DNA of 64,000 nt from Acinetobacter phage phiAB441. The translations under genes were made by a program, and so were the position numbers. The stretch lies in sequence record PV420835.1, one strand, 5' to 3'. Shown here in pieces: positions 4,358 through 54,236 of the stretch (its first letter is position 1; every line of letters begins with the position of its first letter). The notes beneath the pieces were generated by a model. That model ran no database searches and was not told the origin of the DNA. It saw nothing but the letters and a program-made list of their open reading frames with translations.

Positions 4358-4401
4358 TTAAACCAAACAAACAAGCTAAACAAGCTTAAAGGAAACACAG
4401 C

Positions 4402-4587: not shown

Positions 4588-4598
4588 GGAATATAACC

Positions 4599-4763: not shown

Positions 4764-4783
4764 TAACCAACTAAACACACAAT

Positions 4784-4806
4784 GCCCGCTATATGCGGGC
4801 TTTTTA
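4784..4806 (+). terminator. Rho-independent terminator gcccgc-tatat-gcgggc plus TTTTT
   Basis: Read directly. Closes the rightward early block before the convergent leftward operon. Confidence 0.7.
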
Positions 4807-5292
4807 TTGCCTATAGAAAACATATCCTAGAATACTCATAATATCCTTCATTATAACGCCGTATAGCAGCTTTATAGTAATGTTATTGAATGTTAAGCTA
4901 GGGTAGTACCTTAGTGTATTAAAGTGTCTGTAATAAGCTTATATGTGTGTTTAATTGAATGTGTTGTCAGTATTGTTGTTAGCAATGTTTCTATTGTTGT
5001 ATCTCTAAATTAAATATCAAATCTTTTTTGCTTAGAGGATAGTTGTTGAGATGTTTGTTTGTGTGTTTGTTAATAAAGATATAAGAAACAATTTAAATCA
5101 AGTGCGGTGAATCTTAGAAGCTTTGCAGGGATATACCAGTGATGATAAAAAGAAAAGTGTTAATCTTTGAAGCGATATTATACGATATTTTGCTTGACAA
5201 ACCACTTGAAAAATGGTAGACGTCTCTTGGTGTTTAATGGTAGAGTATATAAATAGTCAAATTTTAAACCGTCTACACACTCCACCAACAAA

Positions 5293-6258: not shown

Positions 6259-6281
6259 TCATTTCCTCCTAAGATACTTTA

Positions 6282-6303
6282 CCCCTAACACCCACCCCAC
6301 CCC
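6282..6303 (-). other. G-quadruplex motif GGGG-T-GGGG-T-GGG-TGTTA-GGGG on the transcribed minus strand
   Basis: C-tracts read directly on the plus strand in an otherwise AT-rich intergenic region, just upstream of the HEG RBS. Confidence 0.4.
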
Positions 6304-6354
6304 AATTCCAAAAACACACTTCCAAAAATTTTTCGGAAATTATTTTAGGGAAAA

Positions 6355-6690
6355 TTATTCACTCTTGAGAGCTTGCTCTATCTTCTCTCTAATAGATATA
6401 ACATCGTTCCCTTTAATCTGATATGCGTCTAATCCATATCGCAGAGCTTCTTCTAATAGGTTTTGTAGCTCATCAATCTTTTTTTGCTGCTGACAAAACA
6501 TCAAAAAAGCAAAGCTAAAATACGCAGAATGTTGGCAGTGAAAATCGTTTTTGTGATTAATAGGTGCGTATGTTTTACCTTTGAAATACACATTATTTTT
6601 CAACCAGTTCTTGTGATCTGCACAAATTGCTATCGAAAGACTTTCAAACTCTTCTCTACATTTATGTAAATTGCGCATAATTCTCTCCAA
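6355..6690 (-). CDS. Hypothetical protein
   Basis: ORF track. In-line within the leftward operon. Confidence 0.5.
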   Translation of the reverse strand: MERIMRNLHKCREEFESLSIAICADHKNWLKNNVYFKGKTYAPINHKNDFHCQHSAYFSFAFLMFCQQQKKIDELQNLLEEALRYGLDAYQIKGNDVISIREKIEQALKSE

Positions 6691-7042
6691 TAAACTTTTT
6701 CAATTCATCACACACCCAAGACTCAATCCAATATTGTTTTTCATGAGTAAAGTCTTTCCAATCGAAGTGTTCTCGTTTTAATGTCACTGTAGCAACTTTA
6801 ACATCAGTCTCAGATTCAACAAAACCAACTTCATCGTAATCATACCACTCATCTGTTCTTTTTTGTGTATACCTTTCGTATTTACGTACAGCTTCAGGTA
6901 TTCCGTACTTACGAACAAGTACGCTGGCTAAAAATTCAAGTCTTTCGTCAACTAGACGATGTGCTTTTCGCATCTCTTGATATTCGTAAAAGAATGAAGT
7001 TGGTGTTACTTTTATATCATCATCCCAAAAATAATTATCCAT
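6662..7042 (-). CDS. Hypothetical protein
   Basis: ORF track. Confidence 0.5.
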   Translation of the reverse strand: MDNYFWDDDIKVTPTSFFYEYQEMRKAHRLVDERLEFLASVLVRKYGIPEAVRKYERYTQKRTDEWYDYDEVGFVESETDVKVATVTLKREHFDWKDFTHEKQYWIESWVCDELKKFIGENYAQFT

Positions 7043-7044
7043 AT

Positions 7045-7314
7045 TTATTCCTTATTTATAACAGGGTCTTGATCTGTACATATACTCTTTCCGCAAGCAT
7101 GACTTGATTCAATTGAATTAATATTCAAGTTTTTTGGACAGACCCAATATCTATCTCCTTTAAATAAATATTTAGTACAACCAATTGAGTTCACTTCTAG
7201 AACATATGGTGTTGTTTTTCCTCTATCTCTTCCATTTGCTGATATACCAATTAACACGGAGAATGGTATTAATATCATCATAACTCCTATCATTACCAAA
7301 TGCCACAACCTCAT
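7045..7314 (-). CDS. Membrane protein (N-terminal TM, Cys-rich C-terminus)
   Basis: ORF track. Hydrophobic N-terminus. Confidence 0.45.
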   Translation of the reverse strand: MRLWHLVMIGVMMILIPFSVLIGISANGRDRGKTTPYVLEVNSIGCTKYLFKGDRYWVCPKNLNINSIESSHACGKSICTDQDPVINKE

Positions 7315-7323
7315 TTTACTCTC

Positions 7324-7536
7324 CTAAATTTCCCTCTTCCATTTGTCATAAAACTCTAACAAATCTTTTGTTGTACCAAACCACCCAACAAACACTGTTC
7401 TTATCACGCCTTTATCATCAATTAAGATGTGTCCAGCATGAAATACTACATTGTATTCCAACATGTAATAATGTGTAAGTTCTAAAGGTTCATTATCTTT
7501 GATTCTATGTATGTTATTAAATAGATAACTCATCAC
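7324..7536 (-). CDS. Hypothetical protein
   Basis: ORF track. Confidence 0.45.
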   Translation of the reverse strand: MMSYLFNNIHRIKDNEPLELTHYYMLEYNVVFHAGHILIDDKGVIRTVFVGWFGTTKDLLEFYDKWKREI

Positions 7537-7718
7537 TTACCTCCAACATACAATGGTACTTGTTGAAAATCACATCTGACTACTCTTGTCGATGTCTCAT
7601 GAAACTTCTTTTGTTTCACACACAATTCTCTTGTTGCATATGTTAGTTGATAATTAACTGACTTCTCATATTGTGCATCATACACTGTTAATACCCATAC
7701 TGTCAACCATGTAATCAT
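7533..7718 (-). CDS. Hypothetical protein
   Basis: ORF track. Start overlaps the next gene's stop. Confidence 0.4.
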   Translation of the reverse strand: MITWLTVWVLTVYDAQYEKSVNYQLTYATRELCVKQKKFHETSTRVVRCDFQQVPLYVGGK

Positions 7719-8131
7719 AAATCATACTCCTTCTTCAATTGTTCCAATTCTTCCCAAGTATTCCAAGTTTTACTTGTTGATGCTAAACCATATTGTCTAG
7801 GTAAGAAACTTAATTCACCACATCGGTCATAACACACTTCATACCATTTAATCCACAACTGACTATCCTTGAGACTACCAAATTCATCACCCTTAACAAT
7901 TGTGATGTCTTTATCCCAACCATACTCTTTATAAACTCTATTGTTGTACCATTGACAATCTTGATTGAAGAGGTTATGTGGATTATAGAATGAATAACTT
8001 TTCTTCGTGTACACTTTGTTGAACATAGTTTTAAGTTTACCTAACTCCTCTTCACTAAACTCATTAACAATTAGTTTATCAACATTAGTACAGGCTTTTA
8101 TTAAGTTTAACATATCAGTTAATATTTTCAC
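7715..8131 (-). CDS. Hypothetical protein
   Basis: ORF track. Confidence 0.5.
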   Translation of the reverse strand: MKILTDMLNLIKACTNVDKLIVNEFSEEELGKLKTMFNKVYTKKSYSFYNPHNLFNQDCQWYNNRVYKEYGWDKDITIVKGDEFGSLKDSQLWIKWYEVCYDRCGELSFLPRQYGLASTSKTWNTWEELEQLKKEYDL

Positions 8132-8334
8132 AAATTAACCCTCCCAAGATCAGACGAATATTTCATATACTTATCAATACGTTCTTTCTTTTCAGCTACA
8201 GCTTTCCAATCAATATTATCAAAGTCGAAATCAAAATCATACTCATAATTTAAATATTGCACAACAGCAATAAATCCTTTCAAGATAGAGTCTCCAAATA
8301 AATTAAATAAGTAAAAAGTAAAGCTAATATACAA
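8128..8334 (-). CDS. Hypothetical protein. Start uncertain because it overlaps 8280..8462.
   Basis: ORF track. DFDFDFD repeat. N-terminal part may be untranslated. Confidence 0.35.
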   Translation of the reverse strand: MYISFTFYLFNLFGDSILKGFIAVVQYLNYEYDFDFDFDNIDWKAVAEKKERIDKYMKYSSDLGRVNL

Positions 8335-8462
8335 TCAATAATCTTACGAATCCAGAAAGTCACTTTTTCTGTGTAACTTGTATAGGTAATTACAAATAAG
8401 TATAAAAATGCAATTGTAAAAGCTAACAATATAAACATAACAACCTCAAAGTGTAGATGCAC
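8280..8462 (-). CDS. Small membrane protein (2 TM)
   Basis: ORF track. Strongly hydrophobic. Confidence 0.35.
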   Translation of the reverse strand: MHLHFEVVMFILLAFTIAFLYLFVITYTSYTEKVTFWIRKIIDCILALLFTYLIYLETLS

Positions 8463-8787
8463 TAACTAAGTATTTACCTTTCTCACCAAACATGTCATCA
8501 ACTACAGCTTGTGCAAAACGATAATCTTTAGCTTTAATAAATACACGATTACCAAAAGCATTTTTAATGTGATACTTGTACTTAGGAAACTTATTGTTTC
8601 TAGGAGCGTGACAACTAATAAAAACAACTTTCTTTTTACCTTCATACTCAAATGTATATTGAGATACTCCACCGTTCACAAGAATTCTTTCATCAAATAT
8701 TACAACTTCCTTTTTTTCTTTCTTCTTAACCACCTTCAAGTCTTGTTTCTTTGATGCTTTCAATAAGGCTTGTAACATTGCAGTCAT
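8446..8787 (-). CDS. Hypothetical basic protein
   Basis: ORF track. Lys-rich N-terminus. Confidence 0.5.
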   Translation of the reverse strand: MTAMLQALLKASKKQDLKVVKKKEKKEVVIFDERILVNGGVSQYTFEYEGKKKVVFISCHAPRNNKFPKYKYHIKNAFGNRVFIKAKDYRFAQAVVDDMFGEKGKYLVSASTL

Positions 8788-8891
8788 TTAAATCTCCAGA
8801 TAACACTATGTGTTTTACATTAAACATTTCTACAGACAATAATAAAGCGACACTCAACTAATGTCAAGTGTCGCTTATGATAAATTTGTAA

Positions 8892-9437
8892 TTATTGTGT
8901 ATTGTATTTTTCTTCTAATTGCTTCCATGCGTCCTGCAAAGTAGACACGGACTGTCTGAGCTTATCCCCATCCTCTGCCATGTCGAGATATCGTTCTGTG
9001 CAGCTTCCAAACGACTCTTGTAACCATTGTAAGTCTCGCCTTGATACACTGACGGAGCTTTCGGAATTACCACTTTGATCGGTACTACTCCCACTTCCGA
9101 CTTTATTGATTTGTTCGCGCAACCGCTTAACATCAGTATTGAGATTGTTCCTAGAAACAGTAATTTTATCGATTTCACTTTGATGTTTCTCCTGTAAAAT
9201 TGTATACTCTTTATTTAATTCATTAAGTTTCTTAATTGAATTATTTTGCTCTTCAATCAGTTTGGAAGTCATATCATTTTTAAGAGAAACATAAGCTACA
9301 TCTTTATCAACTAGCTTTTTCTCATATTTATTTTTAAGACTTTCATTCTGCATTAACAAACCAAGTAATCCAATAAATAAAATAACGATTAAGAATTCCT
9401 TCCAAAATCTAATAATATAAGAAATAGCTAGTGTCAT
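8892..9437 (-). CDS. i-spanin (Rz-like): N-terminal TM anchor plus periplasmic coiled coil
   Basis: N-terminal hydrophobic helix FLIVILFIGLLGLLM, then heptad-rich segment. A lipoprotein ORF is embedded in its C-terminal half in another frame. Confidence 0.55.
   Translation of the reverse strand: MTLAISYIIRFWKEFLIVILFIGLLGLLMQNESLKNKYEKKLVDKDVAYVSLKNDMTSKLIEEQNNSIKKLNELNKEYTILQEKHQSEIDKITVSRNNLNTDVKRLREQINKVGSGSSTDQSGNSESSVSVSRRDLQWLQESFGSCTERYLDMAEDGDKLRQSVSTLQDAWKQLEEKYNTQ
8915..9178 (-). CDS. o-spanin (Rz1-like) outer-membrane lipoprotein, embedded in the +1 frame within the i-spanin gene
   Basis: Signal peptide plus lipobox LSGC. Pro-rich mature part. Entirely inside 8892..9437. Confidence 0.5.
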   Translation of the reverse strand: MKSIKLLFLGTISILMLSGCANKSIKSEVGVVPIKVVIPKAPSVYQGETYNGYKSRLEAAQNDISTWQRMGISSDSPCLLCRTHGSN

Positions 9438-9438
9438 A

Positions 9439-10119
9439 TTACTTCTTCCGTTTCTTAAGTTCGTTTTGAATCATCTTCACATCTTCTTTGTATAAGGATA
9501 ATTCATTTTCAAGTTCTTCATCTGTGTATTGTGACATATCGAGAGGTTTATCCAATTCACTCATACGCGCTTCAATACGAGTATTTTCACGTTTTTGTAA
9601 ACGCTCACGAATCTCAAAATCCTCTAAGTATATCTCTTTTCCAGCGATAACACTTTGAATTTCTTCTTCTGTCAGGAAGTCCTTGTATGTCTCTTTGATA
9701 AATCTTTCGTTCACTTTCTTATTGTGTTCTGCACGAGTCACAATCTTATGTGCATCATCATAACCAGTGCCACAAATCATATTATGAATCATTAAACAAG
9801 AATCATCATGAACCTGATAACTATGAGCATCTTCCAAAAATAATGCACCACCAGCACTCGCAGCCATACCAAGAAGATTCATGTGAATGTTTGCTTGTGT
9901 TGATCTGATAGCGTTTCTTAAAGCAATTAAACTGTATAAACTTCCACCATCTGAGTTGATGTTGAACACAATGTGATCATCTGGACTAGATATACTTAAT
10001 ATATGAATGACCTCATCAAACGTGTATGCATCTCCAAAAACTTGACTGACATTTACTGTGTAATTTACACCATTACAAGGTGTAGCAAAAATTGCTGGGT
10101 ATTTATTTTCTTCTTGCAT
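9439..10119 (-). CDS. ClpP-like serine protease with C-terminal coiled-coil extension
   Basis: Motifs NSDGGS, GMAASAG (Ser) and LMIHN (His) match ClpP/S14 catalytic positions. Its stop abuts the i-spanin start. Confidence 0.6.
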   Translation of the reverse strand: MQEENKYPAIFATPCNGVNYTVNVSQVFGDAYTFDEVIHILSISSPDDHIVFNINSDGGSLYSLIALRNAIRSTQANIHMNLLGMAASAGGALFLEDAHSYQVHDDSCLMIHNMICGTGYDDAHKIVTRAEHNKKVNERFIKETYKDFLTEEEIQSVIAGKEIYLEDFEIRERLQKRENTRIEARMSELDKPLDMSQYTDEELENELSLYKEDVKMIQNELKKRKK

Positions 10120-10127
10120 ATCATCTC

Positions 10128-10313
10128 CTATAATTTTCGTGGTGGCAGTTTGATTTCTAAACCAATATCAGGACGCATGTGACGAATCTTGAAGCCCATC
10201 TTCTGAACCTTTCGTAAAGCAGCATCTTCTGTTTCTGCTGAAACACGAAGCTCACCTTCGATGTCATCAGTGTACACGGTAAAGATTGTTCGTTTGTTTG
10301 GTTTATATCCCAT
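10128..10313 (-). CDS. Hypothetical small protein
   Basis: ORF track. Confidence 0.45.
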   Translation of the reverse strand: MGYKPNKRTIFTVYTDDIEGELRVSAETEDAALRKVQKMGFKIRHMRPDIGLEIKLPPRKL

Positions 10314-10564
10314 TACTCCTCCAAATCTTCTTCTAAAATTACAAAATAACTTTCACCTTCAAGTCGATTAAAACTATCAAGAAAATCATTTAACTCATCA
10401 ACATATGCCCAATACGTTTCTGCACAATCACGATTATCTAAAATTTCTTTTTCAAGAGCATCAATTTTCTTAAAGACCTCTGAATACTCCTGATAAGGAA
10501 TCAGATATGTATGACCATTATCATCTTCATATGTTGCATAAATTTTATTTGGATTAATGTTCAT
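10313..10564 (-). CDS. Hypothetical acidic protein
   Basis: ORF track. Confidence 0.5.
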   Translation of the reverse strand: MNINPNKIYATYEDDNGHTYLIPYQEYSEVFKKIDALEKEILDNRDCAETYWAYVDELNDFLDSFNRLEGESYFVILEEDLEE

Positions 10565-11343
10565 TACATCAAACCTTCTTTAGTGAAAACTTTAATCCAT
10601 TCACGACACTCTTTACTACGAACAATATCACCAATTTCATCAAAGTTAATCAACCCCATAGTCTCTTGAAGTTTTGCATATTTAGAATACAAATCAATAG
10701 CAACCTTTAATCCACTATCGTGTTTTAATGCACTTTGACGAACATCACCTTCAATAACAAGAGTACACCCATTCTGACGTGTGAGCAAACTCATAATTTC
10801 TTCAACCGTACAATCTTCAGCTTCGGTAACAATTACAGCAGTTGTATCATCAAAGCTTCGACCCTTAACAGTTTCCATAGGAACGAACTCAATATCACCA
10901 TTCTCAATTGCTAATAAGGTTGCTGCACGACCAATGCGTTTAAATAAAACATCAATAACTGGAGCCAACCAAACAGAGGATTTCTGTTCGATCGTTCCAG
11001 CGAAATAACCTAAAGATTTACTATTTGACACAGCAGGACGAACAAGAACAAGTTTCTTAATTCTTCCAGTTCTGTACCAATCAGCAAATGTTGCAGTTGG
11101 AATATAGGTTTTAGATGTTCCAGCATAACCAGTTGCTAAAATACAGCGTTTATCTTCAAGAAGTTCCATATACTTACGTTGCTTTGGATTCATAGGCAAG
11201 ATTGGATTATTCTTTACAAACTCATCTCGCTCTTGCTTATGTTTTTCACTTAAATACTGTTGTTTCTCACCAATTTCTTGTCTGTAACTTCGATTAGAAA
11301 CACCACGACCATCTTGTAATTGTCTATTACGAGCTTTACCCAA
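10564..11343 (-). CDS. phoH: PhoH-like ATPase
   Basis: Walker A ATGYAGTSKTY and overall PhoH-family layout, by established knowledge of the family. Confidence 0.75.
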   Translation of the reverse strand: MGKARNRQLQDGRGVSNRSYRQEIGEKQQYLSEKHKQERDEFVKNNPILPMNPKQRKYMELLEDKRCILATGYAGTSKTYIPTATFADWYRTGRIKKLVLVRPAVSNSKSLGYFAGTIEQKSSVWLAPVIDVLFKRIGRAATLLAIENGDIEFVPMETVKGRSFDDTTAVIVTEAEDCTVEEIMSLLTRQNGCTLVIEGDVRQSALKHDSGLKVAIDLYSKYAKLQETMGLINFDEIGDIVRSKECREWIKVFTKEGLM

Positions 11344-11367
11344 ATCATCTCTCCTTAATGTTAGGAA

Positions 11368-11538
11368 TTATTTATTAATAATTTCACTTGGAATAATAAA
11401 ACTTGTTTTACCTTCCACACTACATAAAAACTTAATAAACAAACTCTGTTCTTTTTTAGAAAGTTTCTTTAAAGTCTCAATCTTCGATTCATTTGTACTT
11501 TTAAGATTATTTGCATTCACTAAATTAATTTCTGACAT
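11368..11538 (-). CDS. Small hypothetical protein (about 56 aa). Not in ORF track.
   Basis: Minus-strand ATG at 11538 preceded by ggag with 6-nt spacing. Open to a taa. Confidence 0.35.
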   Translation of the reverse strand: MSEINLVNANNLKSTNESKIETLKKLSKKEQSLFIKFLCSVEGKTSFIIPSEIINK

Positions 11539-11625
11539 AATTTTCTCCTAATCAATATAAAACATCCATGTTAATAATTCCTATTTAATTGAGATTAACC
11601 GTCCCAACCTTCCATAATAAACACC

Positions 11626-11925
11626 TTACTTCTTAGTAGTGGTTTTTGTTGTTTGTGTTTTAACAGAAGTTTTAACTGGTGTCTTAGCAGGATTAGCCGA
11701 CTCAGTGGTTTCAGCAGCTTCTTCTTTAGCAACATCCTTCACTACTTCAGACTTTTCTTCAGATTGTTTAGCTGAACGCTGGAAGTTAGCTGTAAATTGA
11801 ACACCACCAATAGTTGCACTACCATTTGCTACAAAAGACCAACCATTTTGAATCAACTCTTGAACTTCAAGTAAGAATTGTACATAATTAGTGTGACGAA
11901 TACGTTTTGTTTCTACATTTGACAT
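11626..11925 (-). CDS. Hypothetical protein with Lys/Thr-rich C-terminal tail (possible DNA-binding). Promoter-proximal (first) gene of the leftward operon.
   Basis: Start moved to ATG 11925 (MSNVETKR), which has an aaggaa RBS. ORF track's upstream extension has no RBS. Promoter lies just upstream. Confidence 0.5.
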   Translation of the reverse strand: MSNVETKRIRHTNYVQFLLEVQELIQNGWSFVANGSATIGGVQFTANFQRSAKQSEEKSEVVKDVAKEEAAETTESANPAKTPVKTSVKTQTTKTTTKK

Positions 11926-11956
11926 TTTTGTTTCCTTTATATATAAATGAATAATA

Positions 11957-11985
11957 TTTATAACATTGTTAAATTCACATGTCAA
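11957..11985 (-). promoter_or_regulatory. Leftward sigma70-like promoter TTGACA-17-TATAAA
   Basis: Read on the minus strand. About 30 nt upstream of ATG 11925. Confidence 0.5.
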
Positions 11986-12043
11986 GTAAAATAACAATAC
12001 TTAACAATGATAGTGAGTATATTGTTATTTTTTGTTAAAACTA

Positions 12044-12072
12044 TTGACATTCACTCTTGACAAGGTTATAGT
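12044..12072 (+). promoter_or_regulatory. Rightward sigma70-like promoter TTGACA-17-TATAGT, with tandem overlapping TTGACA
   Basis: Hexamers read directly. Divergent from the leftward promoter. Confidence 0.55.
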
Positions 12073-12321
12073 GCAAGGACAGGGTTGGGTTGGATATGTT
12101 ATTATGAGTGAAACGAAATAATAATACATTAATGTCAATCTTTAGATTGCTACAATATATTGAATGAGTGAAACGAATGAAATATATTGGGATATAAGAA
12201 TAATATTATAAATATAACACTATAGAATATAACACTTACAATATACTATATGTTTTCTATGCGTAGCATAATATATTATATAATAATATTGTAAAATAAT
12301 ACTTTGGAGAATTAAAAGAAT

Positions 12322-12987
12322 ATGTCAACATTAGAAGATTATCTATCTTTAAGAATACAAGACTGTTACTACGATAGCAATACATACTTCAACAGAGATA
12401 AGAATTTATATCATGTGTATTTGTTTTATTATGATAATGAATTAGTTTATGTTCATTACGGACATGATGGAACAGAAGAAATACATTATACACCAGAATC
12501 ACCATGTCCTAAGTTTAGAAAGATTTACAAAGAGAATAAGACACACCTGATATCACACCATCACCTTACCAAGTTTAGTGTTTTACATGATTGTTTATTT
12601 TATGTTGATTTCCTGATTAGTAAACTTAAACCTAAATACAATAAGAAGATTGAGTTGTTGGATGAGACTGTGTACAACAAACAGATCAGATTTACACATG
12701 CTCCAGATGAAATACCTCATACTAATAAATTAACTTTGTTGTATTTGTTTTGTTTACTTGGTTATCCACTTCAGTTAATATCTGATTACACTGGTGTTGA
12801 TCTTAAAGAATTAAGTAAGATTAAAAACAGAGAAGGAAAATATTCTTATCCTGTGTTTTGTTTTGAATATGTAAGCAAACAAGGATTTCCTGTTGTGGAT
12901 AAAGCATTACTTAATCATTATTGCAATGTTGTGTTTAAGACAGATATTGATTGTATTGAAGAGCTTTATGGTGTTGCTTATTTTTAG
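12322..12987 (+). CDS. Hypothetical protein (His/Tyr-rich)
   Basis: ORF track. ggag RBS. First rightward gene after the divergent promoters. Confidence 0.55.
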   Translation: MSTLEDYLSLRIQDCYYDSNTYFNRDKNLYHVYLFYYDNELVYVHYGHDGTEEIHYTPESPCPKFRKIYKENKTHLISHHHLTKFSVLHDCLFYVDFLISKLKPKYNKKIELLDETVYNKQIRFTHAPDEIPHTNKLTLLYLFCLLGYPLQLISDYTGVDLKELSKIKNREGKYSYPVFCFEYVSKQGFPVVDKALLNHYCNVVFKTDIDCIEELYGVAYF

Positions 12988-13046
12988 CACATATACCAAT
13001 TAAAAATCATAGTCAATAATAATTTTGTAAAGTTATGTAAAAAAGC

Positions 13047-13075
13047 TTGACTAATCTTTAAAAGGTTGTTATTCT
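13047..13075 (+). promoter_or_regulatory. Promoter-like TTGACT-17-TATTCT
   Basis: Read directly, inside the 430-bp non-coding region. Confidence 0.35.
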
Positions 13076-13151
13076 TATCAACATAAAGAAAACAATAAAT
13101 AATAATTTCTGAATGGACTCCTTAATTCAGAAAGGATTCACTTTCCTCCAA

Positions 13152-13217
13152 CATCACTCTCTTATTCTACAAACAATAATAATAAAGACTCTCCTGTAAG
13201 AGAGTGATGTATTTTCT
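13152..13217 (+). other. 12-bp perfect inverted repeat catcactctctt/aagagagtgatg with 34-nt loop, followed by tattttct
   Basis: Read directly. Terminator-like or protein-binding site. Confidence 0.45.
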
Positions 13218-13418
13218 AATATGCGGAAATCAGTATGATGTAGTGAAGTAAGTGCTATAGTAAACTTATGAATCGAGAGTTGGTTAGAATCCAATAATTC
13301 CGCTCCATATTTTAGATTTCACCCATGATCAGATTACGGTGGGAATGAAACGTGTAGTGGTGTCGCTACCATGTAAGCGAATGTGACACATCTTTATTAG
13401 CAACAAATAGGTAAAATA

Positions 13419-13781
13419 TTGAACGAAGCTATTCTATGTTTAGCAATTGCAATATTCAACGAAAGTCGTGGTGAACCAATTAAAGGTCAATATGCTGTAG
13501 CTGAAGTTATTCATAACCGAAGTAGGCATGATGATTTTCCTAAAGGGTATTGTGATGTCGTTAAACAACGAGGTCAGTTTTCTTGGTATAAAAGCTCAAA
13601 AGATTTAAAACCACCTAAGCACGATAAGGATGCTTGGAATGATAGCGTGAAAGTCGCTAACTCCTTTTACACCAATAAAACAAATTATACGAAAGGCGCA
13701 TTATACTTTAATTCTAGTAGATTAGGTGTTCGCTTTAATAAACAATTAAAATGTAAAATTGGAAAGCATGTTTTCTTTTGA
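13419..13781 (+). CDS. SleB-like cell-wall hydrolase (Hydrolase_2 family)
   Basis: N-terminal motif ESRGEPIKGQYAVAEVIHNRS...QRGQFSW matches the SleB/Hydrolase_2 signature, by established knowledge. Confidence 0.65.
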   Translation: MNEAILCLAIAIFNESRGEPIKGQYAVAEVIHNRSRHDDFPKGYCDVVKQRGQFSWYKSSKDLKPPKHDKDAWNDSVKVANSFYTNKTNYTKGALYFNSSRLGVRFNKQLKCKIGKHVFF

Positions 13782-13800
13782 TTACATGCTTTTTTATTTT
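13764..13800 (+). terminator. Intrinsic terminator aagcatg-(14-nt loop)-catgctt plus TTTTATTTT, overlapping the SleB-like gene stop
   Basis: Read directly. Confidence 0.5.
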
Positions 13801-13810
13801 CGAGGTATTT

Positions 13811-14164
13811 ATGGCAGCAAGAAATTTCGATAAGGTTTATGACGCTAAAGTAATTAAAGCTAAGATGAACGCTGATGTTGAGTTAGCAATTAAAATCTTA
13901 CGTGATGGATTAGTGTCAACTACCCTAAATGAAAAAGATAAAATTAAATTAGCTTCAGATTATCTTGGTTGGTTCATCCGTCTAGATAACAAGATTATTC
14001 AAGATGAATTCAATAAAGAAGCTTTAAAACAATCAAAATTAAAAACTCTCTCAATTCAAAACGATTTACATGAAAAAGAGAATGAAGAATTTTTAGAAGA
14101 AACAAAACCTTTAAATCAACATAAATTTAATCCGTATATGAGTGATGACGATAACTATAGTTAG
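13811..14164 (+). CDS. terS: Putative terminase small subunit
   Basis: Sits immediately upstream of terL. Start moved to ATG 13811 (gagg RBS) from ORF-track 13778. No recognisable motif, so the call is by position only. Confidence 0.4.
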   Translation: MAARNFDKVYDAKVIKAKMNADVELAIKILRDGLVSTTLNEKDKIKLASDYLGWFIRLDNKIIQDEFNKEALKQSKLKTLSIQNDLHEKENEEFLEETKPLNQHKFNPYMSDDDNYS

Positions 14165-47448: not shown

Positions 47449-47619
47449 ATGAATTTTACAGAATATTTAAATTTAATTAAAGAGATTTTAAATGATAATG
47501 GTGTTGTGTTATCAACAATGGAAGAACATCATCAGGAAGAGTTGATTAAGAAGTTTAAGAAATGTTTTAAAGATGGTGAGGATGTTGATGAGGCAATAGA
47601 CAGAGTTATGGGGTGGTGA
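47449..47619 (+). CDS. Small acidic protein (56 aa). Not in ORF track.
   Basis: ATG 47449 with ggagg RBS at 6-nt spacing. Its stop overlaps the GTG start of the HEG. Confidence 0.45.
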   Translation: MNFTEYLNLIKEILNDNGVVLSTMEEHHQEELIKKFKKCFKDGEDVDEAIDRVMGW

Positions 47620-48410
47620 ATGTGAAGTATATAAACAAAATTGAATATAAAAACTGTATAGGTAAAGTTTTTGCTTCAAAATACTATGGCTTATTTAAGG
47701 TTATTAGCTATCATAATAGGTCTAAGGTTGAAATTGAGTTTATTGAAACTGGTTATAGGAAATTTTGCGGATTATCAAATATAAGAGTTGGTGAAATAAG
47801 AGACCCTTACTTTAAATCACTTTGTGGTGTTGGTGTTGTGGGTGTAAAGTATGACACGCGTTACAAAAATGAGAGCGGTAAGAATGCAATGGTTAAGCAA
47901 TATAATATTTGGAGTCATATGATAAAAAGATGTTACTCTGAGAAAAGCGAAGACAAGGATAAAACATACAAAGACTGCACTGTTTCAGAAAACTTTAAAC
48001 ACTACGAATACTTTTATGAATGGTGCAATAGACAGATTGGTTTTAATAACGAAGGTTGGCAACTTGATAAAGATTTATTAGTGAAAGGTAACAAGATTTA
48101 TTCTGAGGACACTTGTGTATTTCTACCGCAAGAATTGAATAACTTGTTAACTAAAAGGTCTAATAATAGAGGTGAATTTCCAATTGGTGTATGTTATAGA
48201 AAACGAGAAGGTAAATATTCATCAGCGTTAAGTTTAAACAAAGGAAACCCTACCACACTAGGATATTACAACACACCTGAAGAAGCCTTCTATGCTTACA
48301 AGAAAGCTAAAGAATCATTTATCAAAGAACAGGCTTACAAATGGAAAGATAAAATCGATCCTAGAGCTTTTGAAGCTTTGATGAATTATAGAGTTGAAAT
48401 TACAGATTGA
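47613..48410 (+). CDS. AP2-domain HNH-family homing-endonuclease-like protein. Paralog of 5293..6258.
   Basis: WSHMIKRC motif and C-terminal AP2-like LGYYNTPEEAFYAYKKA. GTG start. Confidence 0.6.
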   Translation: MVNVKYINKIEYKNCIGKVFASKYYGLFKVISYHNRSKVEIEFIETGYRKFCGLSNIRVGEIRDPYFKSLCGVGVVGVKYDTRYKNESGKNAMVKQYNIWSHMIKRCYSEKSEDKDKTYKDCTVSENFKHYEYFYEWCNRQIGFNNEGWQLDKDLLVKGNKIYSEDTCVFLPQELNNLLTKRSNNRGEFPIGVCYRKREGKYSSALSLNKGNPTTLGYYNTPEEAFYAYKKAKESFIKEQAYKWKDKIDPRAFEALMNYRVEITD

Positions 48411-50263
48411 TTATTCAGGAGAATACGTTTGTATTTCTCCTTTTTGTATTGGAGGGAAAGTTGGGAATCTGTGTTGGAAAAGAACAATGTCCGAAATGTA
48501 GTGAGGAAGGTAGAGATAGGCATGGAGACAATTTAGCCATATATGACGATGGGAGTAAATATTGTTTTTCATGTGGTCACACTGAAAGTGGTAATAGTGA
48601 TTTAGGAGTTAAGGAGAGAAAATTAGTGAATTTGGAAAAAGAGTGGGAAAAGTTATTAAGTAAGAAGTTAAGTAAAGAAGAATTAGAACAAATTGGTAAA
48701 GAGGTTGGAACTGATCCTAAAGGTTGGAGAGGTTTAAAATCACAATATTTAAATGGTTTAGGTATTCGATTTAAATATGATGAACAAGACAATCCTTGTG
48801 AAATGTTAACAGCAACAACTGTGACAATGAATAATAAAACGGAATTTGTTGGTTTTAAGTCTCGTAAGTTCCCAAAAGATTTTTCAAGTCCTAAAGGTTA
48901 TGTTGGTAATTTATGTGACTTAATTGGTTATCATAAATTTAAAGGTAGTAAGCGAACATTAGTTATTGTTGAGGGTGAAGTTGACTATGCTTCAGCATTC
49001 CAAATGTACCAAATGGATATGCAATCTCGTGGTAAGAAATATGAACTCCCTGCTGTAGTTTCTGTAGTAAATGGTATTAGTTCTATTGTTAAAGTATTTA
49101 AAGAGAATGATACAAACTTTAAGTTCTTCAAACAATTTGAACGTGTTGTCATTGCGGTTGACAATGATGATGTTTCTAATAAATTTGTTGATGAATTTAT
49201 TGCAGCAATGCCACGAGAGACATTATATAGAGCTACATTACGATATAAGGATGCTAATAAATACTTGGAAGCTGGTGCTATTAGTGAATGGGTTAATGAT
49301 ACATATTGGAACCCTACACCGTGTTCTGTTGCGAGTATTACAGGTAGTTCTGATTGGTTATCAGATGCTAAAGAAGAATTAACAACTCCACGTTTATTGT
49401 TGCCTGACTTTGTACAGGGAATTAACAATGCAACTCGTGGTGGTTTACCTATGGGTCGTTATGTTATCTTTGCTGGTGCTTCTTCAATTGGTAAGACTGT
49501 ATTTGTCAATTCAATGATTTATGATTGGATTATTCAGGACACACATCGTATTGGTGTTGTTAGTTTAGAATTATCTAGAGGTCAATATTATGTTGAGATG
49601 TTATCGCGTCATATCGGTTTAAACATTGATGATATTGATGATAATGAAGAACGTGCCACTTTGCTTGATGATTTAACAATTGTTGAGAAAGGTAACGAAT
49701 TATTCATGCGTGAAGATGGTACAAGTCGTTTCCACGTTGTTGATGATCGTGACAGTAGTATTGCTAAGATTCAAGAGTTATGTGAAGAGTTGGTAATTAA
49801 GCATAATGTTGAAGTTTTAATTCTTGATCCTATTTCTGATTTAACACAAAGACTTGACAATCAAGAACAAGTAGTATTTAATAGCTGGATTAAATCATTT
49901 ATTAAGAAACATAATGTTTTAGTCGTTGGTATCAGTCATGTTAAGAAAGGTGATAAGAACTATGACAATGGTGATATTCCAGATGAAGGTGATTTGATTG
50001 GTAGTTATTCTGGAGCTTCTTCTGCTGCTGCTATCTTTTTCTTGAGTCGTAATAAGATGAGTGATGACCTTGTAGAAAGAAACACAACACTCGTTACAAC
50101 ACCGAAGATTAGATGGACAGGTAGAACGGGTGTAGTTGATCGTGTTTTCTTTGATCATAAGACACGAAAACTTATTAACTATTCAGATTATTTAAAGGGA
50201 AATATTTCAAGTGCTTTAGATGAGCCTAAAGACACTGAAGTTAAAGTTGATTGTGATTTTTGA
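48407..50263 (+). CDS. Bifunctional primase-helicase (zinc-finger plus TOPRIM primase, DnaB-like helicase). Translated start probably the TTG near 48461.
   Basis: CPKC...CFSCGH zinc finger. VIVEGEVDYASAF TOPRIM. GASSIGKT Walker A. HVKKGDK motif. Confidence 0.85.
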   Translation: MIIQENTFVFLLFVLEGKLGICVGKEQCPKCSEEGRDRHGDNLAIYDDGSKYCFSCGHTESGNSDLGVKERKLVNLEKEWEKLLSKKLSKEELEQIGKEVGTDPKGWRGLKSQYLNGLGIRFKYDEQDNPCEMLTATTVTMNNKTEFVGFKSRKFPKDFSSPKGYVGNLCDLIGYHKFKGSKRTLVIVEGEVDYASAFQMYQMDMQSRGKKYELPAVVSVVNGISSIVKVFKENDTNFKFFKQFERVVIAVDNDDVSNKFVDEFIAAMPRETLYRATLRYKDANKYLEAGAISEWVNDTYWNPTPCSVASITGSSDWLSDAKEELTTPRLLLPDFVQGINNATRGGLPMGRYVIFAGASSIGKTVFVNSMIYDWIIQDTHRIGVVSLELSRGQYYVEMLSRHIGLNIDDIDDNEERATLLDDLTIVEKGNELFMREDGTSRFHVVDDRDSSIAKIQELCEELVIKHNVEVLILDPISDLTQRLDNQEQVVFNSWIKSFIKKHNVLVVGISHVKKGDKNYDNGDIPDEGDLIGSYSGASSAAAIFFLSRNKMSDDLVERNTTLVTTPKIRWTGRTGVVDRVFFDHKTRKLINYSDYLKGNISSALDEPKDTEVKVDCDF

Positions 50264-50294
50264 GGTGATTTTTCACCTCTTTTAATTTGGAGGA

Positions 50295-51386
50295 ATGTGT
50301 AGAAAAATGACTAATGAAGTTAAATATTTTGAAGGTGATTGGATATGGGATATTGAGACTTTCCCAAATATAGTCACTTTTGCATTTCTTAAAGCAGATA
50401 AATCTGAGAGAAAGTTATTTGAAATATCTAAACGTACTAATGATTTGGATTTATTTTTAGATTTTTGTCGTGAATCTAAAATAAATGATTATAGATTTGT
50501 AGGTTTTAACTCTATCTCTTTTGACTATGTTGTGTTACATTGGATTTTAAAAAGAGCAATGGATGCTAAAGCTAAGAGAGAGAAGTTAAAGCTCACTGCT
50601 AATCAAATCTACAAATATGCAATGAAAGTTATTGAGAGCAAGAAAGATGGTCAGTTTGGTATTAATGTAAAAGTTGAAGATCACATTATTCGTCAACTAG
50701 ATTTATTTAAAATTAATCATTATGACAACAAAGCTAAGATGACTTCTTTGAAGTTGTTGGAGTTTAATATGCGATTGGACAACATTAGTGATTTACCTTT
50801 TCCTGTTGGTAAAACTTTATCAAGTGAAGAGATGGATACTTTAATTGAATATAACTTTACAGACGTTGGTGCTACACATGACTTCTATCAATTGAATTAT
50901 GATTCTATTAAATTCCGTGCTGAACTTACGCAAAAATATGGATTTGATTGTACAAACTTAAATGATTCGAATATTGGTGAGCAATTCTTTATCCGTAAGA
51001 TTGAAGCAAAACAACCAGATGCTTTTTATACATATGATGTTGTATCAGGTAAAAAGAAACTAAAGAAAACACCACGACCATTTGTTAAAATTGCTGATTG
51101 TTTATTTGATTATTTAAATTTTAAAACACCTGAAATGCAAGCTTTACATAATTGGTTTAAGAAGCAAGTAATTACAGAAACAAAGGGTGTGTTTAGTGAT
51201 ATTGAAGAACATAATTTAGGTGATTTAGCGAAGTATTGTGAACTTGTTCAAAAGGAAGTTAAGTTTAAAGACAATCCTTCTGAGAAAGAGAAGCAGGATT
51301 TTTTGAAAGAACACCCTTTGGGTTGGTTTGAGGTTAGAGAGTTAAAGACACTTGAAACATTAAAAGATAAGATGGTAACTCTGTAA
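50295..51386 (+). CDS. Family-B DNA polymerase, N-terminal 3'-5' exonuclease part
   Basis: Exo I DIETFPN and Exo II GFNSISFD. Terminates at taa 51384, but pol sequence continues in the -1 frame from 51371. Confidence 0.7.
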   Translation: MCRKMTNEVKYFEGDWIWDIETFPNIVTFAFLKADKSERKLFEISKRTNDLDLFLDFCRESKINDYRFVGFNSISFDYVVLHWILKRAMDAKAKREKLKLTANQIYKYAMKVIESKKDGQFGINVKVEDHIIRQLDLFKINHYDNKAKMTSLKLLEFNMRLDNISDLPFPVGKTLSSEEMDTLIEYNFTDVGATHDFYQLNYDSIKFRAELTQKYGFDCTNLNDSNIGEQFFIRKIEAKQPDAFYTYDVVSGKKKLKKTPRPFVKIADCLFDYLNFKTPEMQALHNWFKKQVITETKGVFSDIEEHNLGDLAKYCELVQKEVKFKDNPSEKEKQDFLKEHPLGWFEVRELKTLETLKDKMVTL

Positions 51387-52060
51387 AAGAGAATTTCATT
51401 GATGATAAAGGTAGAGTTAAACAAAGAGTAGTAAAGGTTCCAAAGAAGGCTTATTATGGTTGCTACAAGATCGCTGAGACACTTAATGTTATTATTGGTG
51501 GTATGAGGGTGGATTATGGTGTTGGTGGTCTACACGGTGCTGTACAGGGACATCATAAGAAATCTGATGACAAGTCAATTTTGTCTTGGGATGTTGCGAG
51601 TATGTATCCTAACATTGCTATTGCTAACCGTGTTTATCCTGAACATTTGAATGAAAGTTTTTGTGATAGTTATGAGGAATTTTATAATGAACGTAAAAAG
51701 TATCCTAAAGGTACAGGTGAGAACTTGGCGATTAAGCTGGGTTTGAACTGTGTCTACGGAAAATCCAACAGTGAGTTTAGTTGTTTCTATGACTCTGCGT
51801 ATACTATGAAGATTACAGTAAATGGACAATTGACATTATCAATGTTACTTGAACGACTTGTTTTGGATTGTCAAGTTAAACCGTTGATGGTTAACACAGA
51901 TGGCTTTGAAGTTATTATTGATAACGATAAGATTGATAAAGCAAATGATATTGTAAGTCGTTGGGAGAAATATGTTGGTCTACAAATGGAAGGTGTTGAA
52001 TATTCTGACATGTTTATTGCCGATGTAAATAATTATTTTGCTATTTATGTGGAGGATTGA
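51371..52060 (+). CDS. Family-B DNA polymerase, palm part (frame -1 relative to the exo part). ORF track begins at Met 51503.
   Basis: Motif A DVASMYPNI, motif B KLGLNCVYGK, motif C VNTDGFEV. Frame open from 51371 (checked by hand). Confidence 0.7.
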   Translation, partial: DGNSVKENFIDDKGRVKQRVVKVPKKAYYGCYKIAETLNVIIGGMRVDYGVGGLHGAVQGHHKKSDDKSILSWDVASMYPNIAIANRVYPEHLNESFCDSYEEFYNERKKYPKGTGENLAIKLGLNCVYGKSNSEFSCFYDSAYTMKITVNGQLTLSMLLERLVLDCQVKPLMVNTDGFEVIIDNDKIDKANDIVSRWEKYVGLQMEGVEYSDMFIADVNNYFAIYVED

Positions 52061-52713
52061 TGCAGTATATTGGATTTAGAACAAAACAAACTGGAATATA
52101 TAAGATTACTAATACGATTAATGGTAAAATTTATATTGGAAGGACTTCAAATTTTAATCGAAGATATGTACAATATTTGTATGATTTTGAAAATCAGAGG
52201 TCTAGGTCAGTTAATCAACATTTTTTAAATTCTGTTAATAAATATGGTTTAGATAATTTTGAGTTTGAGGAACTTTACTATTGTTTTACTGAAGATGAAT
52301 CTTTAGTTTTAGAAATTGAATTTATGAATATGTATAAATCTACGAATAGTGAATTTGGTTATAATAAAAGACAAGATTCAGAAGGTGGTATGATTGTATC
52401 TAATGAAACTTCTTTGAAAATATCTAACAGGTTGAAAAAAGAGTGGAGGTTAGGAGTTAGAGATGGGTATTCAGAAAAGCTAAAGGCTTCTTGGAAAAGT
52501 AGAGATAGAGTTAAGCAAAGTGAATTGTTTTCAAAGTCGTTAACAAAATGGTATTATGTTGTTAATGAAAATTATGATAATAAACTATTTTATAAAGACC
52601 TTGTTGACATGGGTTTGAAAAATTCAATAGGTAAATTTTCTGAAAAGAAATCAAATAAAGTTGTGTTTAAGGATTTTATTATAGAGAGATTTGAGTATGA
52701 AGACGAAAGCTAA
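52057..52713 (+). CDS. GIY-YIG homing endonuclease inserted between polymerase motif C and the KxY motif
   Basis: GIYKITNTINGKIYIGRTSNFNRR is a canonical GIY-YIG motif. ggagga RBS. Likely ATG 52060. Confidence 0.85.
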   Translation: MMQYIGFRTKQTGIYKITNTINGKIYIGRTSNFNRRYVQYLYDFENQRSRSVNQHFLNSVNKYGLDNFEFEELYYCFTEDESLVLEIEFMNMYKSTNSEFGYNKRQDSEGGMIVSNETSLKISNRLKKEWRLGVRDGYSEKLKASWKSRDRVKQSELFSKSLTKWYYVVNENYDNKLFYKDLVDMGLKNSIGKFSEKKSNKVVFKDFIIERFEYEDES

Positions 52714-53149
52714 AGGTAGATATGCTTATAAAGAAATGAAGGAAATGGATTTGGCTTTCATGCACAAGAATCACTCAGCATTAGTTGTACCTATGGCAGT
52801 TGAACATGAGTTGTTAGGTCGTGGTTATGCTGAAGATTTTATTCGTAGTCATAAAGATAAGTTTGATTTCATGCTTAGAACTAAAGTTCCGCGTGGTTCA
52901 AGACTGGTTCTTGAAATGGATGGTGAGGATATTGAGCAACAAAACATTTGTCGTTATTACGTTTCTGAAGATGGTGGGTATTTAACAAAGATTATGCCAC
53001 CACTTAAAGAAGGTGATGAAGATAGACGTATGAGTATTGAAAGTGGTATTAAAGTAAAAACGTGTAATGATATTAATGATTTCTCTTGGGATATTAATTA
53101 TGATTACTATGTTGAGCAAGCAGATAAATTGCTTGAATTTTTTCGTTAA
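52691..53149 (+). CDS. Family-B DNA polymerase, C-terminal thumb fragment
   Basis: KAKGRYAYKE matches the KKRYA (KxY) motif. Same frame as the palm fragment. Frame opens at 52685. Confidence 0.6.
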   Translation: MSMKTKAKGRYAYKEMKEMDLAFMHKNHSALVVPMAVEHELLGRGYAEDFIRSHKDKFDFMLRTKVPRGSRLVLEMDGEDIEQQNICRYYVSEDGGYLTKIMPPLKEGDEDRRMSIESGIKVKTCNDINDFSWDINYDYYVEQADKLLEFFR

Positions 53150-53162
53150 TTAGGAGATGTAA

Positions 53163-54236
53163 ATGTTAAAATTTAAAAAAGGTGATGAAGTTGTCGTTAC
53201 TGGTTTTATTAATGCACTTGCTGAAGAGTATGGAACTCTAGGTGAGGTTGGTGTTGTTGAAGTTGTGGATGGTTCAGAGATTCCATATTTTGTAAAACTA
53301 AAATCTGTTACAGGAGGTTCTGGTGGATTATGGTTTAAGGAGGAGAATTTAAAATCAGCTAAAGAATTTGAGAAACACAATCCTGAACTTAAAATCGGTG
53401 ATGAGGTTGTTATTTTAGAGCATCCTGTTTTAAAAGGAGGTAAAGGAATTAGTTATCCTGAATCAATGCAGAAAGAAATTGGATCAAAACAAACTATTGT
53501 TGAGATTCATGAGCATGGTTATAGATTGTCGAATCATTGGAGTTATGAAGCGAAGTATTTGCAGAAAGTTACTAATGATATTGATAAATCACAACTTCTT
53601 AAACGAGAAATTGAGGTGGGAGATTTAGTTACAGTAATTTCTCTTGAAGAAACAAGACAAGAGTATGGTATTGTTAGTCCAATGAAAAAAGTTGGAGATT
53701 CTTTTATTGTAAAAGGTGTTCATAAAGATAACGAAGATGATTTAATTGAGATTTTTGATGAAGGTAATTGGTCATACGATTCTCGTGATTTAGTAATTTT
53801 ACAGAAAGCTTCAGATATGAAAGAGCGTAAATTAACTCCTATTGATTTGAAATTACCTGTTCATTGTTCATGGGATTTAGCTGCTACTGATGAGGGTAAG
53901 TCAGTAAGTATCGTGTTAGATGATACAATTCCTACTATCCAACCTATTGAGTCAAATGGTGGAAGTAGTGATTATTATTTTACTAAATTACCGAAATGGT
54001 TGATTGATCGAATTGTAGAAACTGGTGGTATTGAAGTTAAAGACATTGTTCAATTTGTATTTGATAATGATGCTCATGCAAAAGATATCATCAAGGCACA
54101 GAAACGTATTATTGAGCAGCGTAAAGGTGGTGGTAAAGCTGGATTAAAACCACTATACGATTACAATAAGATTGTTTTCTTTGCTGAAGATCAGTTACGA
54201 GTTGCTAAGAATAATCTTGACGAGAAATCTGAATAA
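53163..54236 (+). CDS. Hypothetical protein with three internal KOW/SH3-like repeats (KKGDEVVVTG, KIGDEVVILEHP, EVGDLVTVISLE)
   Basis: Repeats read directly. Confidence 0.5.
   Translation: MLKFKKGDEVVVTGFINALAEEYGTLGEVGVVEVVDGSEIPYFVKLKSVTGGSGGLWFKEENLKSAKEFEKHNPELKIGDEVVILEHPVLKGGKGISYPESMQKEIGSKQTIVEIHEHGYRLSNHWSYEAKYLQKVTNDIDKSQLLKREIEVGDLVTVISLEETRQEYGIVSPMKKVGDSFIVKGVHKDNEDDLIEIFDEGNWSYDSRDLVILQKASDMKERKLTPIDLKLPVHCSWDLAATDEGKSVSIVLDDTIPTIQPIESNGGSSDYYFTKLPKWLIDRIVETGGIEVKDIVQFVFDNDAHAKDIIKAQKRIIEQRKGGGKAGLKPLYDYNKIVFFAEDQLRVAKNNLDEKSE

Follow-up and report, generated by a model that had tools for sequence, protein, structure and literature searches.

The polymerase locus of phiAB441

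The DNA analysed here is a stretch of 64,000 nucleotides (nt) from Acinetobacter phage phiAB441 (record PV420835.1), called the window below, and its positions 50295 to 53149 contain a DNA polymerase gene in pieces with an endonuclease gene among them. The window comes from a myophage of Acinetobacter in the B9 / TaPaz / BS46 / Ab3-TPeters group, with a genome of roughly 95 kb; large parts of it are 92–94% identical in nucleotide sequence to the genomes of these four phages, and none in the phage collection is closer. The local gene order is HNH/AP2 endonuclease, primase/helicase, polymerase and an open reading frame (ORF) of 357 amino acids (aa). An earlier note on this DNA, made from its letters, had described three polymerase-derived ORFs and one GIY-YIG ORF, and the ORF list contains all four where it had placed them. 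Our reading is that the region is probably a replicative family-B DNA polymerase gene that has been interrupted by a free-standing GIY-YIG endonuclease gene inserted by homing.

The first piece, pol-N segment 1 (50295–51386, + strand in the ORF list), encodes the N-terminal and 3'-5' exonuclease part and matches the 'DNA polymerase' family phrog_1252 (E=3.6e-62); it codes for polymerase through codon AAG at 51369–51371, after which four out-of-frame codons (MVTL) lead to a TAA at 51384–51386. The second, pol-N segment 2 (51371–52060, +), is assigned to the palm and fingers by its translation, its phrog_1252 match (E=7.6e-68) and alignments to archaeal family-B polymerases (PolB). It ends with VED followed by TGA at 52058–52060, its first in-frame ATG, GTG or TTG is ATG 51503, and a search with it found 3389 homologues at E<=0.001 (50% representatives). 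The third piece, pol-C (52697–53149, +), is a 150-aa thumb subunit by its alignments and its matches to phrog_15833 (E=4.3e-42) and phrog_1252 (E=3.5e-26); the relative L005 has a called 150-aa protein, P0001, that is 97% identical to it. The polymerase of Ab3-TPeters is one uninterrupted protein of 737 aa, with 94% amino acid identity to the three joined window pieces. No exact match to any of the four window proteins, alternative starts included, was found in a collection of 15 billion proteins.

The assignment to family B, already proposed from the letters, is borne out by a clade profile compared with the PDB, by the fold of a homologue and by invariant motif residues. A single-sequence search of the PDB gave weak matches to archaeal PolB, aligned via motifs A, B and C, and a profile of 38 clade sequences matches 37 PDB sequences, all named DNA polymerase (best E=2.7e-6), the identifiable ones among which are family B (archaeal PolB, Pol epsilon). 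The structural evidence comes from the homologue P0115, which shares 55% identity with the joined window protein, and not from the window protein directly: the AlphaFold model of P0115 has a predicted local distance difference test score (pLDDT) of 92.6, and its top 50 Foldseek matches in the PDB contain nothing but family-B polymerases (archaeal PolB, Pol alpha; E about 1e-14, probability 1.00). The exonuclease motifs lie in 50295–51386 as claimed earlier, with DIET (ExoI, DxE), FNSISFD (ExoII, Nx2-3(F/Y)D) and YNFTD (ExoIII, Yx3D) in the first ORF, and so do motifs A (DVASMYPN), B (KLGLNCVYG) and C (NTDG) in 51371–52060, where they align with archaeal PolB. The exonuclease residues D19, E21, N72, D77, Y186 and D190 are invariant across the 38 clade members, and the clade alignment shows the same constancy at the polymerase residues D433/Y438 (motif A), K481/N485/G489 (motif B) and N534/D536 (motif C); motif C is NTD, not DTD, throughout the clade. 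Pfam DNA_pol_B and DNA_pol_B_exo gave nothing at E<=0.01 on any fragment or on the intact Ab3-TPeters protein, and one relative carries faint precomputed Pfam polymerase matches. This miss reflects the divergence of the clade from the Pfam models, and it does not outweigh the profile and fold evidence.

The KxY motif had been placed in the C fragment, and there we differ. The equivalent invariant tyrosine (Y581, Ab3-TPeters numbering) lies in 'VNNYFAIY' of the second ORF, 5' of the endonuclease gene, and in the profile alignment it falls on the KxY of KOD/Tgo polymerase (K592–Y594); the 'KGRY' of the C fragment is the strand after the KxY-equivalent strand. The endonuclease gene, said to sit exactly between motif C and KxY, does follow motif C, but the KxY equivalent is also upstream of it.

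The endonuclease gene and its junctions

The gene between pol-N and pol-C is a free-standing GIY-YIG homing-endonuclease gene of 217 aa (52060–52713, +), recognised by Pfam PF01541 and by PHROG homing-endonuclease families. The PF01541 match, which upholds the identification made from the letters, scores 29.8 bits against a cutoff of 22.6 and covers model positions 2–74 of 78, and in an alignment the GIY, YIG, Arg, Glu and GYN (Asn) motif residues are intact and conserved in six homologues; we take these to be the catalytic residues on the pattern of I-TevI. A lenient Pfam search of the C-terminal half for a DNA-binding module gave no match. The open frame, 52057/52060–52713 (217/218 aa), differs from that of the polymerase, and to judge from its surroundings the most likely start codon of the gene is ATG 52060, in overlap with the pol-N stop (TGATG) and with GGAGGA upstream at 52051–52056.

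The endonuclease gene is absent at this site from Ab3-TPeters, B9, TaPaz and BS46, and is present with identical junctions in L013, L014 and L005 (98%, 98% and 82% amino acid identity, respectively), which are three independent SRA assemblies. These endonuclease-carrying relatives have an intact pol-N, of 584 aa in L013, 588 aa in L014 and 580 aa in L005. An exact DNA search of IMG/VR for the endonuclease junction found no match. Between the window and L005 the ratio of nonsynonymous to synonymous substitution rates (dN/dS) is 0.06 for pol-N (dS 0.69), 0.20 for the endonuclease gene (dS 0.53) and 0.08 for pol-C (dS 0.18), low values which indicate that selection has maintained all three genes after the insertion.

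The second polymerase ORF and the C fragment are, as the earlier note said, in the same frame with 630 nt between them, and it was also right that no room is left for an intron core: the locus has gained a net 642 nt over that of Ab3-TPeters, less than the 654-nt endonuclease ORF, which overlaps polymerase coding sequence at both ends. At the 5' end the TGA at 52058–52060 shares its A with ATG 52060, and the GGAGGA before this ATG is encoded within the pol-N codons GTG GAG GAT; at the 3' end the last 17 nt of the endonuclease ORF overlap the pol-C start. That start had been put at TTG 52691, which would give 152 aa; L005 has TTA there, while ATG 52697 and GAGAG(G) are kept, and by this comparison pol-C most likely starts at ATG 52697. 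The weak gagag ribosome-binding site proposed for the downstream fragment is indeed found, as a Shine-Dalgarno-like GAGAG at 52684–52688 (+), 8 nt 5' of the pol-C ATG (GAGAGG at the same place in L005), and it lies within the 3' end of the endonuclease ORF.

The polymerase loses nothing at these junctions. The pol-N end ...AIYVED and the pol-C start MKTKAKGRY cover ...ALYIDGKIKQKGAY of Ab3-TPeters with no residue lost or added; '...AIYVED*' and 'MKTKAKGRYAY...' together span '...ALYIDGKIKQKGAYEY...' of the intact enzyme, and MKTKAKGRYAY aligns with GKIKQKGAYEY of the uninterrupted enzyme. The lack of non-coding sequence together with the completeness of the polymerase residues argues against an intron, and the residue-for-residue coverage of the intact polymerase excludes inteins and split inteins (cf. 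PMC2677866). On its sequence, the break at 52057 | 52697 is a genuine free-standing endonuclease insertion.

The break at 51371

The earlier note had attributed a three-way split of the polymerase to the endonuclease gene. That gene explains the 52057/52697 break only, and the break at 51371 is an unrelated deletion of one nucleotide (51370..51371, +), located by DNA alignments and a regular-expression check. The window reads AAAAGATAAGATGGTAA at this point where Ab3-TPeters, L005, L013 and L014 all read AAAAGATAAGGATGGTAA; one G is missing, AAGGATGG of the four relatives becoming AAGATGG in the window, and the polymerase moves from frame 0 to frame -1. The N-terminal polymerase ORF is uninterrupted in all four of these close relatives, the three with the same endonuclease gene included, and in the alignment to L013 (97.2% identity over 6.6 kb) the deletion is the sole gap. 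Against Ab3-TPeters it is the sole uncompensated insertion or deletion (indel) in well-conserved coding sequence, the remaining indels being compensated pairs in diverged stretches or lying outside ORFs. Exact DNA searches of IMG/VR, metagenome contigs and genome contigs with the frameshifted allele gave no match.

The two frames overlap at 51371–51383 (13 nt, G ATG GTA ACT CTG), bounded by TAA 51368–51370 in the -1 frame and TAA 51384–51386 in the 0 frame, and a direct reading of these 13 nt finds no slippery X XXY YYZ site and no codon able to re-pair in the -1 frame. Programmed frameshifting at 51371 was rejected because the slippery site is absent and the relatives have a single ORF, transcriptional slippage because the longest A run is 4, and termination-reinitiation because the sole nearby TTG/ATG (51399–51404) is in the wrong frame. 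In the P0115 model the deletion maps to a beta-hairpin turn (RDKDGN), in a segment that phage phiPMW lacks. We consider a sequencing or assembly error the most likely origin of the deletion, and if it is such an artefact, pol-N would be, once the G is restored, one ORF of about 588 aa at 50295–52060.

The split site and its recurrence

The junction D588 | M589 of the joined protein corresponds to residues 585 | 586 of the P0115 model, in the middle of a five-residue turn that joins the KxY-equivalent tyrosine strand (577–582) to the next strand (588–591), after which the thumb follows. In KOD/Tgo numbering the clade profile alignment puts the split at about E599–G601 | K602, on the palm/thumb boundary, with domain limits that we take to be those of the KOD structure.

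The same position is split in other members of the clade. Homologous GIY-YIG genes (41–51% identity) lie between pol-N and pol-C in three unrelated genomes, those of L015 (a 95-kb contig) and of phages KpTRp1 and fEV-1; HNH_3 genes are found there in L007/L008 and the marine contigs L011/L012; in phiPMW the split loop holds two small ORFs, and L009/L010 have a bare 45-nt spacer with GGAGAAAGAGAG between the polymerase halves. With pol-C as query 114 clusters were retrieved, almost all made up of short proteins and several on contigs of 70–150 kb; with the motif A–C fragment, about 16 of the best 150 clade representatives have their C-terminus no more than a few residues from the split, some of them on short contigs. 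From their coordinates, the pol-N and pol-C frames are the same in five of nine compared loci and different in the other four, a disagreement that fits independent translation. These occurrences lead us to favour, on balance, the view that endonuclease genes of at least two unrelated families have repeatedly landed in the palm/thumb beta-turn of this clade, which would leave a heritable two-subunit polymerase after endonuclease loss. A limited literature search found no discussion of this clade's split, and the phiPMW paper is silent on it in the matching passages.

The stand-alone C fragments of L007, L009, L015 and phiPMW have an N-terminal extension of 16–20 aa (e.g. LDQSEELKILRELISSG) that has no counterpart in uninterrupted polymerases or in the window pol-C. 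It may have been added as an interaction segment, like those described for split NrdA in phage Aeh1.

Sequences flanking the insertion

The pol-N 3' end and the pol-C 5' end of the endonuclease carriers were aligned with the four uninterrupted alleles, and identity was calculated in windows along them. On the 5' side this delimits a putative co-conversion tract at 52013–52057 (+), which is 100% identical in L013/L014, 86–96% in L005 and about 51–76% to the four alleles without the endonuclease gene; Ab3-TPeters is 96–100% identical directly upstream of it. A putative 3' co-conversion tract is found at 52714–52761 (+); on this side the divergence starts at the pol-C ATG 52697, within the endonuclease overlap, and stops at the point where the match to B9/TaPaz rises sharply to about 100%. 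All uninterrupted alleles drop to about 51–76% identity from about -55 to +65 nt around the insertion, and B9/TaPaz are about 100% identical from about +71 nt, with a megablast match (98%) that begins at 52759. This mosaicism is the pattern expected of an endonuclease gene that arrived with short, putatively co-converted flanks, and it agrees with published work that places nuclease genes at recombination boundaries (PMC10448857).

We note that the B9/TaPaz polymerases have 67% protein identity to that of the window overall, yet over the last roughly 390 nt (52759–53149) their DNA is 98% identical. The switch, about 46 nt 3' of the endonuclease stop codon, is a sharp recombination boundary, though both phages lack the gene. 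We also note that codon 52019–52021 (GCC) encodes the Ala of 'FIADVN' in the endonuclease-carrying Acinetobacter-group alleles and in L015; the clade consensus and every compared allele without the endonuclease have Arg at this codon ('IRDVNNY'). The Ala codon is inside the putative co-conversion tract and could contribute to a resistance of the carrying allele to cleavage, or be a hitch-hiking substitution.

Proposed origin and expression of the split polymerase

Under the interpretation that we prefer, the endonuclease gene would have entered the beta-turn after the KxY-equivalent strand, so that the polymerase would be made as pol-N (about 588 aa) and pol-C (150 aa). The three genes, packed without spacers, would probably be co-transcribed, and their overlapping stop and start codons would couple their translation. 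The two polymerase parts would probably associate non-covalently, restoring the beta-hairpin and the contact between palm and thumb. In a mixed infection the endonuclease would cut polymerase alleles that lack its gene, and recombinational repair would copy in that gene along with its flanks, roughly 55 nt on the upstream side and 65 nt on the downstream side. The central reading of the earlier note, a free-standing gene rather than an intron that splits the polymerase, is upheld here in the form of two subunits, probably translated separately, and not in the form of three.

If instead the endonuclease gene lay within a self-splicing intron (group I or similar), a spliced mRNA would give one polypeptide, as in vibriophage ICP1. 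The frame shared by pol-N segment 2 and pol-C in the window genome would suit such an arrangement, and some phage genes fragmented by homing-endonuclease genes (HEGs) have been found spliced (PMC10448857). We nevertheless hold it to be very improbable. The 654-nt ORF in a 642-nt insertion leaves zero non-coding nucleotides, and the Rfam check for a group I intron that had been suggested, run permissively on 51300–53300, gave chance-level matches only, with no RF00028 or other Rfam intron even at E<=10. The same scan, as a positive control, detects the annotated group I intron in gene 43B of Aeromonas phage 25 (64.2 bits, E=3.6e-15), and a scan of five related loci at gathering thresholds found nothing. 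Conserved polymerase residues, including an invariant lysine (52712–52714), are encoded in the overlap with the endonuclease 3' end, and the pol-N stop, the pol-C ATG and the purine run upstream of it are kept across diverged endonuclease-carrying genomes. The differing pol-N and pol-C frames in four of nine lineages also speak against splicing, as does the variant with the 45-nt spacer, which stays split without any HEG. Even less credible, and close to negligible in our estimate, is a 'fractured gene' in which split-intein halves flank the endonuclease gene and protein trans-splicing joins the polymerase (Dassa et al. 2009, PMC2677866): the order is that of fractured genes, namely N-terminal half, free-standing endonuclease gene and C-terminal half, but compared with Ab3-TPeters there are no surplus residues for an N-terminal (about 100 aa) or C-terminal (about 35 aa) intein half, neither fragment has an intein or Hint Pfam match, and the endonuclease ORF is out of frame.

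The other alternatives concern the deletion at 51371. Were it real, the polymerase might work in three pieces, as a 363-aa exonuclease, a palm/fingers part re-initiated downstream (e.g. at ATG 51503) and the thumb, or low-level recoding might restore pol-N. We find this unlikely, even though the sequencing quality looks good, with no further uncompensated coding indel in the window, the break falls in an exposed beta-hairpin turn of a variable segment (the one absent in phiPMW), and a product from ATG 51503 would retain the invariant GG-H and motifs A, B and C. To reach that ATG, 44 codons without an in-frame ATG, GTG or TTG have to be passed, and starting so late loses the conserved AYYGCYKIAETLNVIIGG; the sole purine-rich stretch 5' of it (GGTGGT) abuts the start codon; and the 13-nt frame overlap offers no slippery heptamer for recoding. 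The ORF is intact in four relatives, one of them 97% identical, the frameshifted allele was found nowhere else, and strong purifying selection persists 3' of the break, so that the change would be very recent at most. In the same improbable case, going by the P0115 model, both breaks would fall in exposed beta-hairpin turns. We also doubt that the deletion is real and the polymerase dead, which would make this a defective variant, a minority haplotype that entered the consensus or a genome unable to replicate alone. A private, uncompensated frameshift in an essential gene with no visible rescue signal is what would be expected of it, but elsewhere the gene is intact and conserved, as are its neighbours, and on sequence alone such a genome would be indistinguishable from one with a sequencing error. 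Two apparent natural three-piece polymerases, P0122 and P0220, were set aside; both are on contigs of roughly 900 nt, one at 0.85x coverage, and their context is uninformative.

Several points weigh against a two-subunit polymerase divided by a homing endonuclease. We infer the separate translation and reassembly of pol-N and pol-C from anatomy and precedent; the activity of the endonuclease and its target on uninterrupted alleles are predicted ones; and the GAGAG ribosome-binding site of pol-C is weak. HEG-fragmented phage genes can be spliced, as in ICP1, and failure to recognise a ribozyme is not absolute proof that there is none (PMC10448857). The window has no other sign of indel-prone sequencing, so the deletion at 51371 could be a real mutation.

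Neighbouring genes

Directly 5' of the primase/helicase gene, and overlapping its listed TTG start by 4 nt, lies a gene for a 265-aa HNH/AP2-domain endonuclease (47613–48410, +; phrog_953 E=1.2e-71, with a weak Pfam AP2 match below the curated cutoff). It is absent from this position in Ab3-TPeters and present in L013 (262 aa) and L014 (241 aa). Other endonuclease genes are found between primase/helicase and polymerase, namely TaPaz_94 (HNH) and a DUF723/T5orf172 gene in L005, and AB9_086, annotated 'hypothetical', is a further candidate there. The replication module looks like a hot spot for homing-endonuclease genes.

A terminator-like hairpin at 50262–50279 (+), GAGGTGATTTTTCACCTC followed by a T run, stands between primase/helicase and polymerase, directly 5' of the polymerase ribosome-binding site, and B9 has an annotated rho-independent terminator at the matching intergenic position. 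Given this hairpin, the polymerase gene may have its own transcriptional control. Promoter-like sites in 50100–53400 are no more frequent than in shuffled sequence (12 versus 16.2 +/- 4.7), and no internal promoter stands out.

Just 3' of the polymerase is the 357-aa ORF (53163–54236, +), whose B9 homologue AB9_088 is annotated 'DNA polymerase'. It has no polymerase signature, its sole match being to phrog_4521 (unknown function) over the C-terminal 100 aa; the homologues in BS46 and L013 are labelled DUF3310, and homologue lengths are 433 aa in Ab3-TPeters, 444 aa in TaPaz and 453 aa in L013. The B9 label is probably wrong. At the other end of the window, within positions 1–14000, GC skew is negative at about 4–12 kb and positive elsewhere, matching the minus-strand early-gene block of Ab3-TPeters; this sign change is ordinary strand-biased gene organisation.

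Relationship to other split phage genes

The nearest precedent is Aeromonas phage 25, in which gp43A and gp43B are split by the seg-like GIY-YIG gene seg43(25), and the halves co-purify and polymerise (Petrov et al. 2010, reviewed in PMC2988022); phage 44RR has its gp43 split like that of phage 25 with no endonuclease gene (PMC2988022). As in phiAB441, a free-standing GIY-YIG gene lies in phage 25 between the separately translated halves of a phage family-B replicative polymerase, and 44RR is paralleled here by L009 and phiPMW, relatives split without the endonuclease. The phage 25 polymerase belongs, however, to the T4-like gp43 clade of PolB and that of the window to the phrog_1252 clade. 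In the phage 25 record the split separates motif A, in gp43A, from motif B, in gp43B, and we take it to lie in the fingers, whereas the window polymerase is split after motif C and the KxY-equivalent strand, and its small piece of 150 aa is the thumb only. Gene 43B of phage 25 also carries a group I intron, and none was detected at the window locus. The two splits share a mechanism and are not the same element.

Among other essential genes, nrdA of Aeromonas phage Aeh1 is split by mobE (Friedrich et al. 2007; PMC3045599) and the phage T4 topoisomerase large-subunit gene by mobA (PMC2988022). These resemble the phiAB441 locus in that a free-standing endonuclease gene interrupts an essential gene at a conserved place and the 'genes-in-pieces' enzyme works as separate polypeptides; they differ in the host gene and in having HNH (Mob) rather than GIY-YIG endonucleases, and Aeh1 NrdA reassembles through interaction segments derived from the mobile element, whereas the window polymerase pieces have no extra residues. 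Intron-encoded endonucleases of the I-TevI type and those of the ICP1 introns (PMC10448857) share the GIY-YIG domain and the insertion into conserved parts of essential phage genes, but the window locus has no ribozyme or non-coding sequence, and its flanking pieces have their own stop and start signals. Pseudomonas phage phiPMW (gp196, gp199), Klebsiella phage KpTRp1 and Yersinia phage fEV-1 each have a polymerase of this clade that is divided at this very loop, KpTRp1 and fEV-1 with a homologous GIY-YIG gene between the halves (41–42% identity) and phiPMW with two small ORFs in its place; they are of other phage groups and have no nucleotide similarity to the window. Their deposited annotations label the pieces 'hypothetical protein', 'DNA polymerase' and 'DNA polymerase B region'.

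That an endonuclease gene can split an essential phage enzyme, PolB included, into working subunits is established biology, and the split described here does not challenge current understanding. It changes the annotation of the locus from three 'polymerase' ORFs and a 'hypothetical' ORF to a two-subunit polymerase, a homing-endonuclease gene and a probable sequencing error. What is new is in the detail: the polymerase clade, the split point that detaches the thumb at a beta-turn, and a site that seems to have been hit repeatedly in different lineages, by two endonuclease families, some variants having lost the endonuclease gene. A second, structurally different split point is thereby added to the few documented split replicative family-B polymerases, and the clade offers a natural system for the tolerance of a polymerase to a detached thumb and for the way in which homing endonucleases shape recombination boundaries in phage replication modules.

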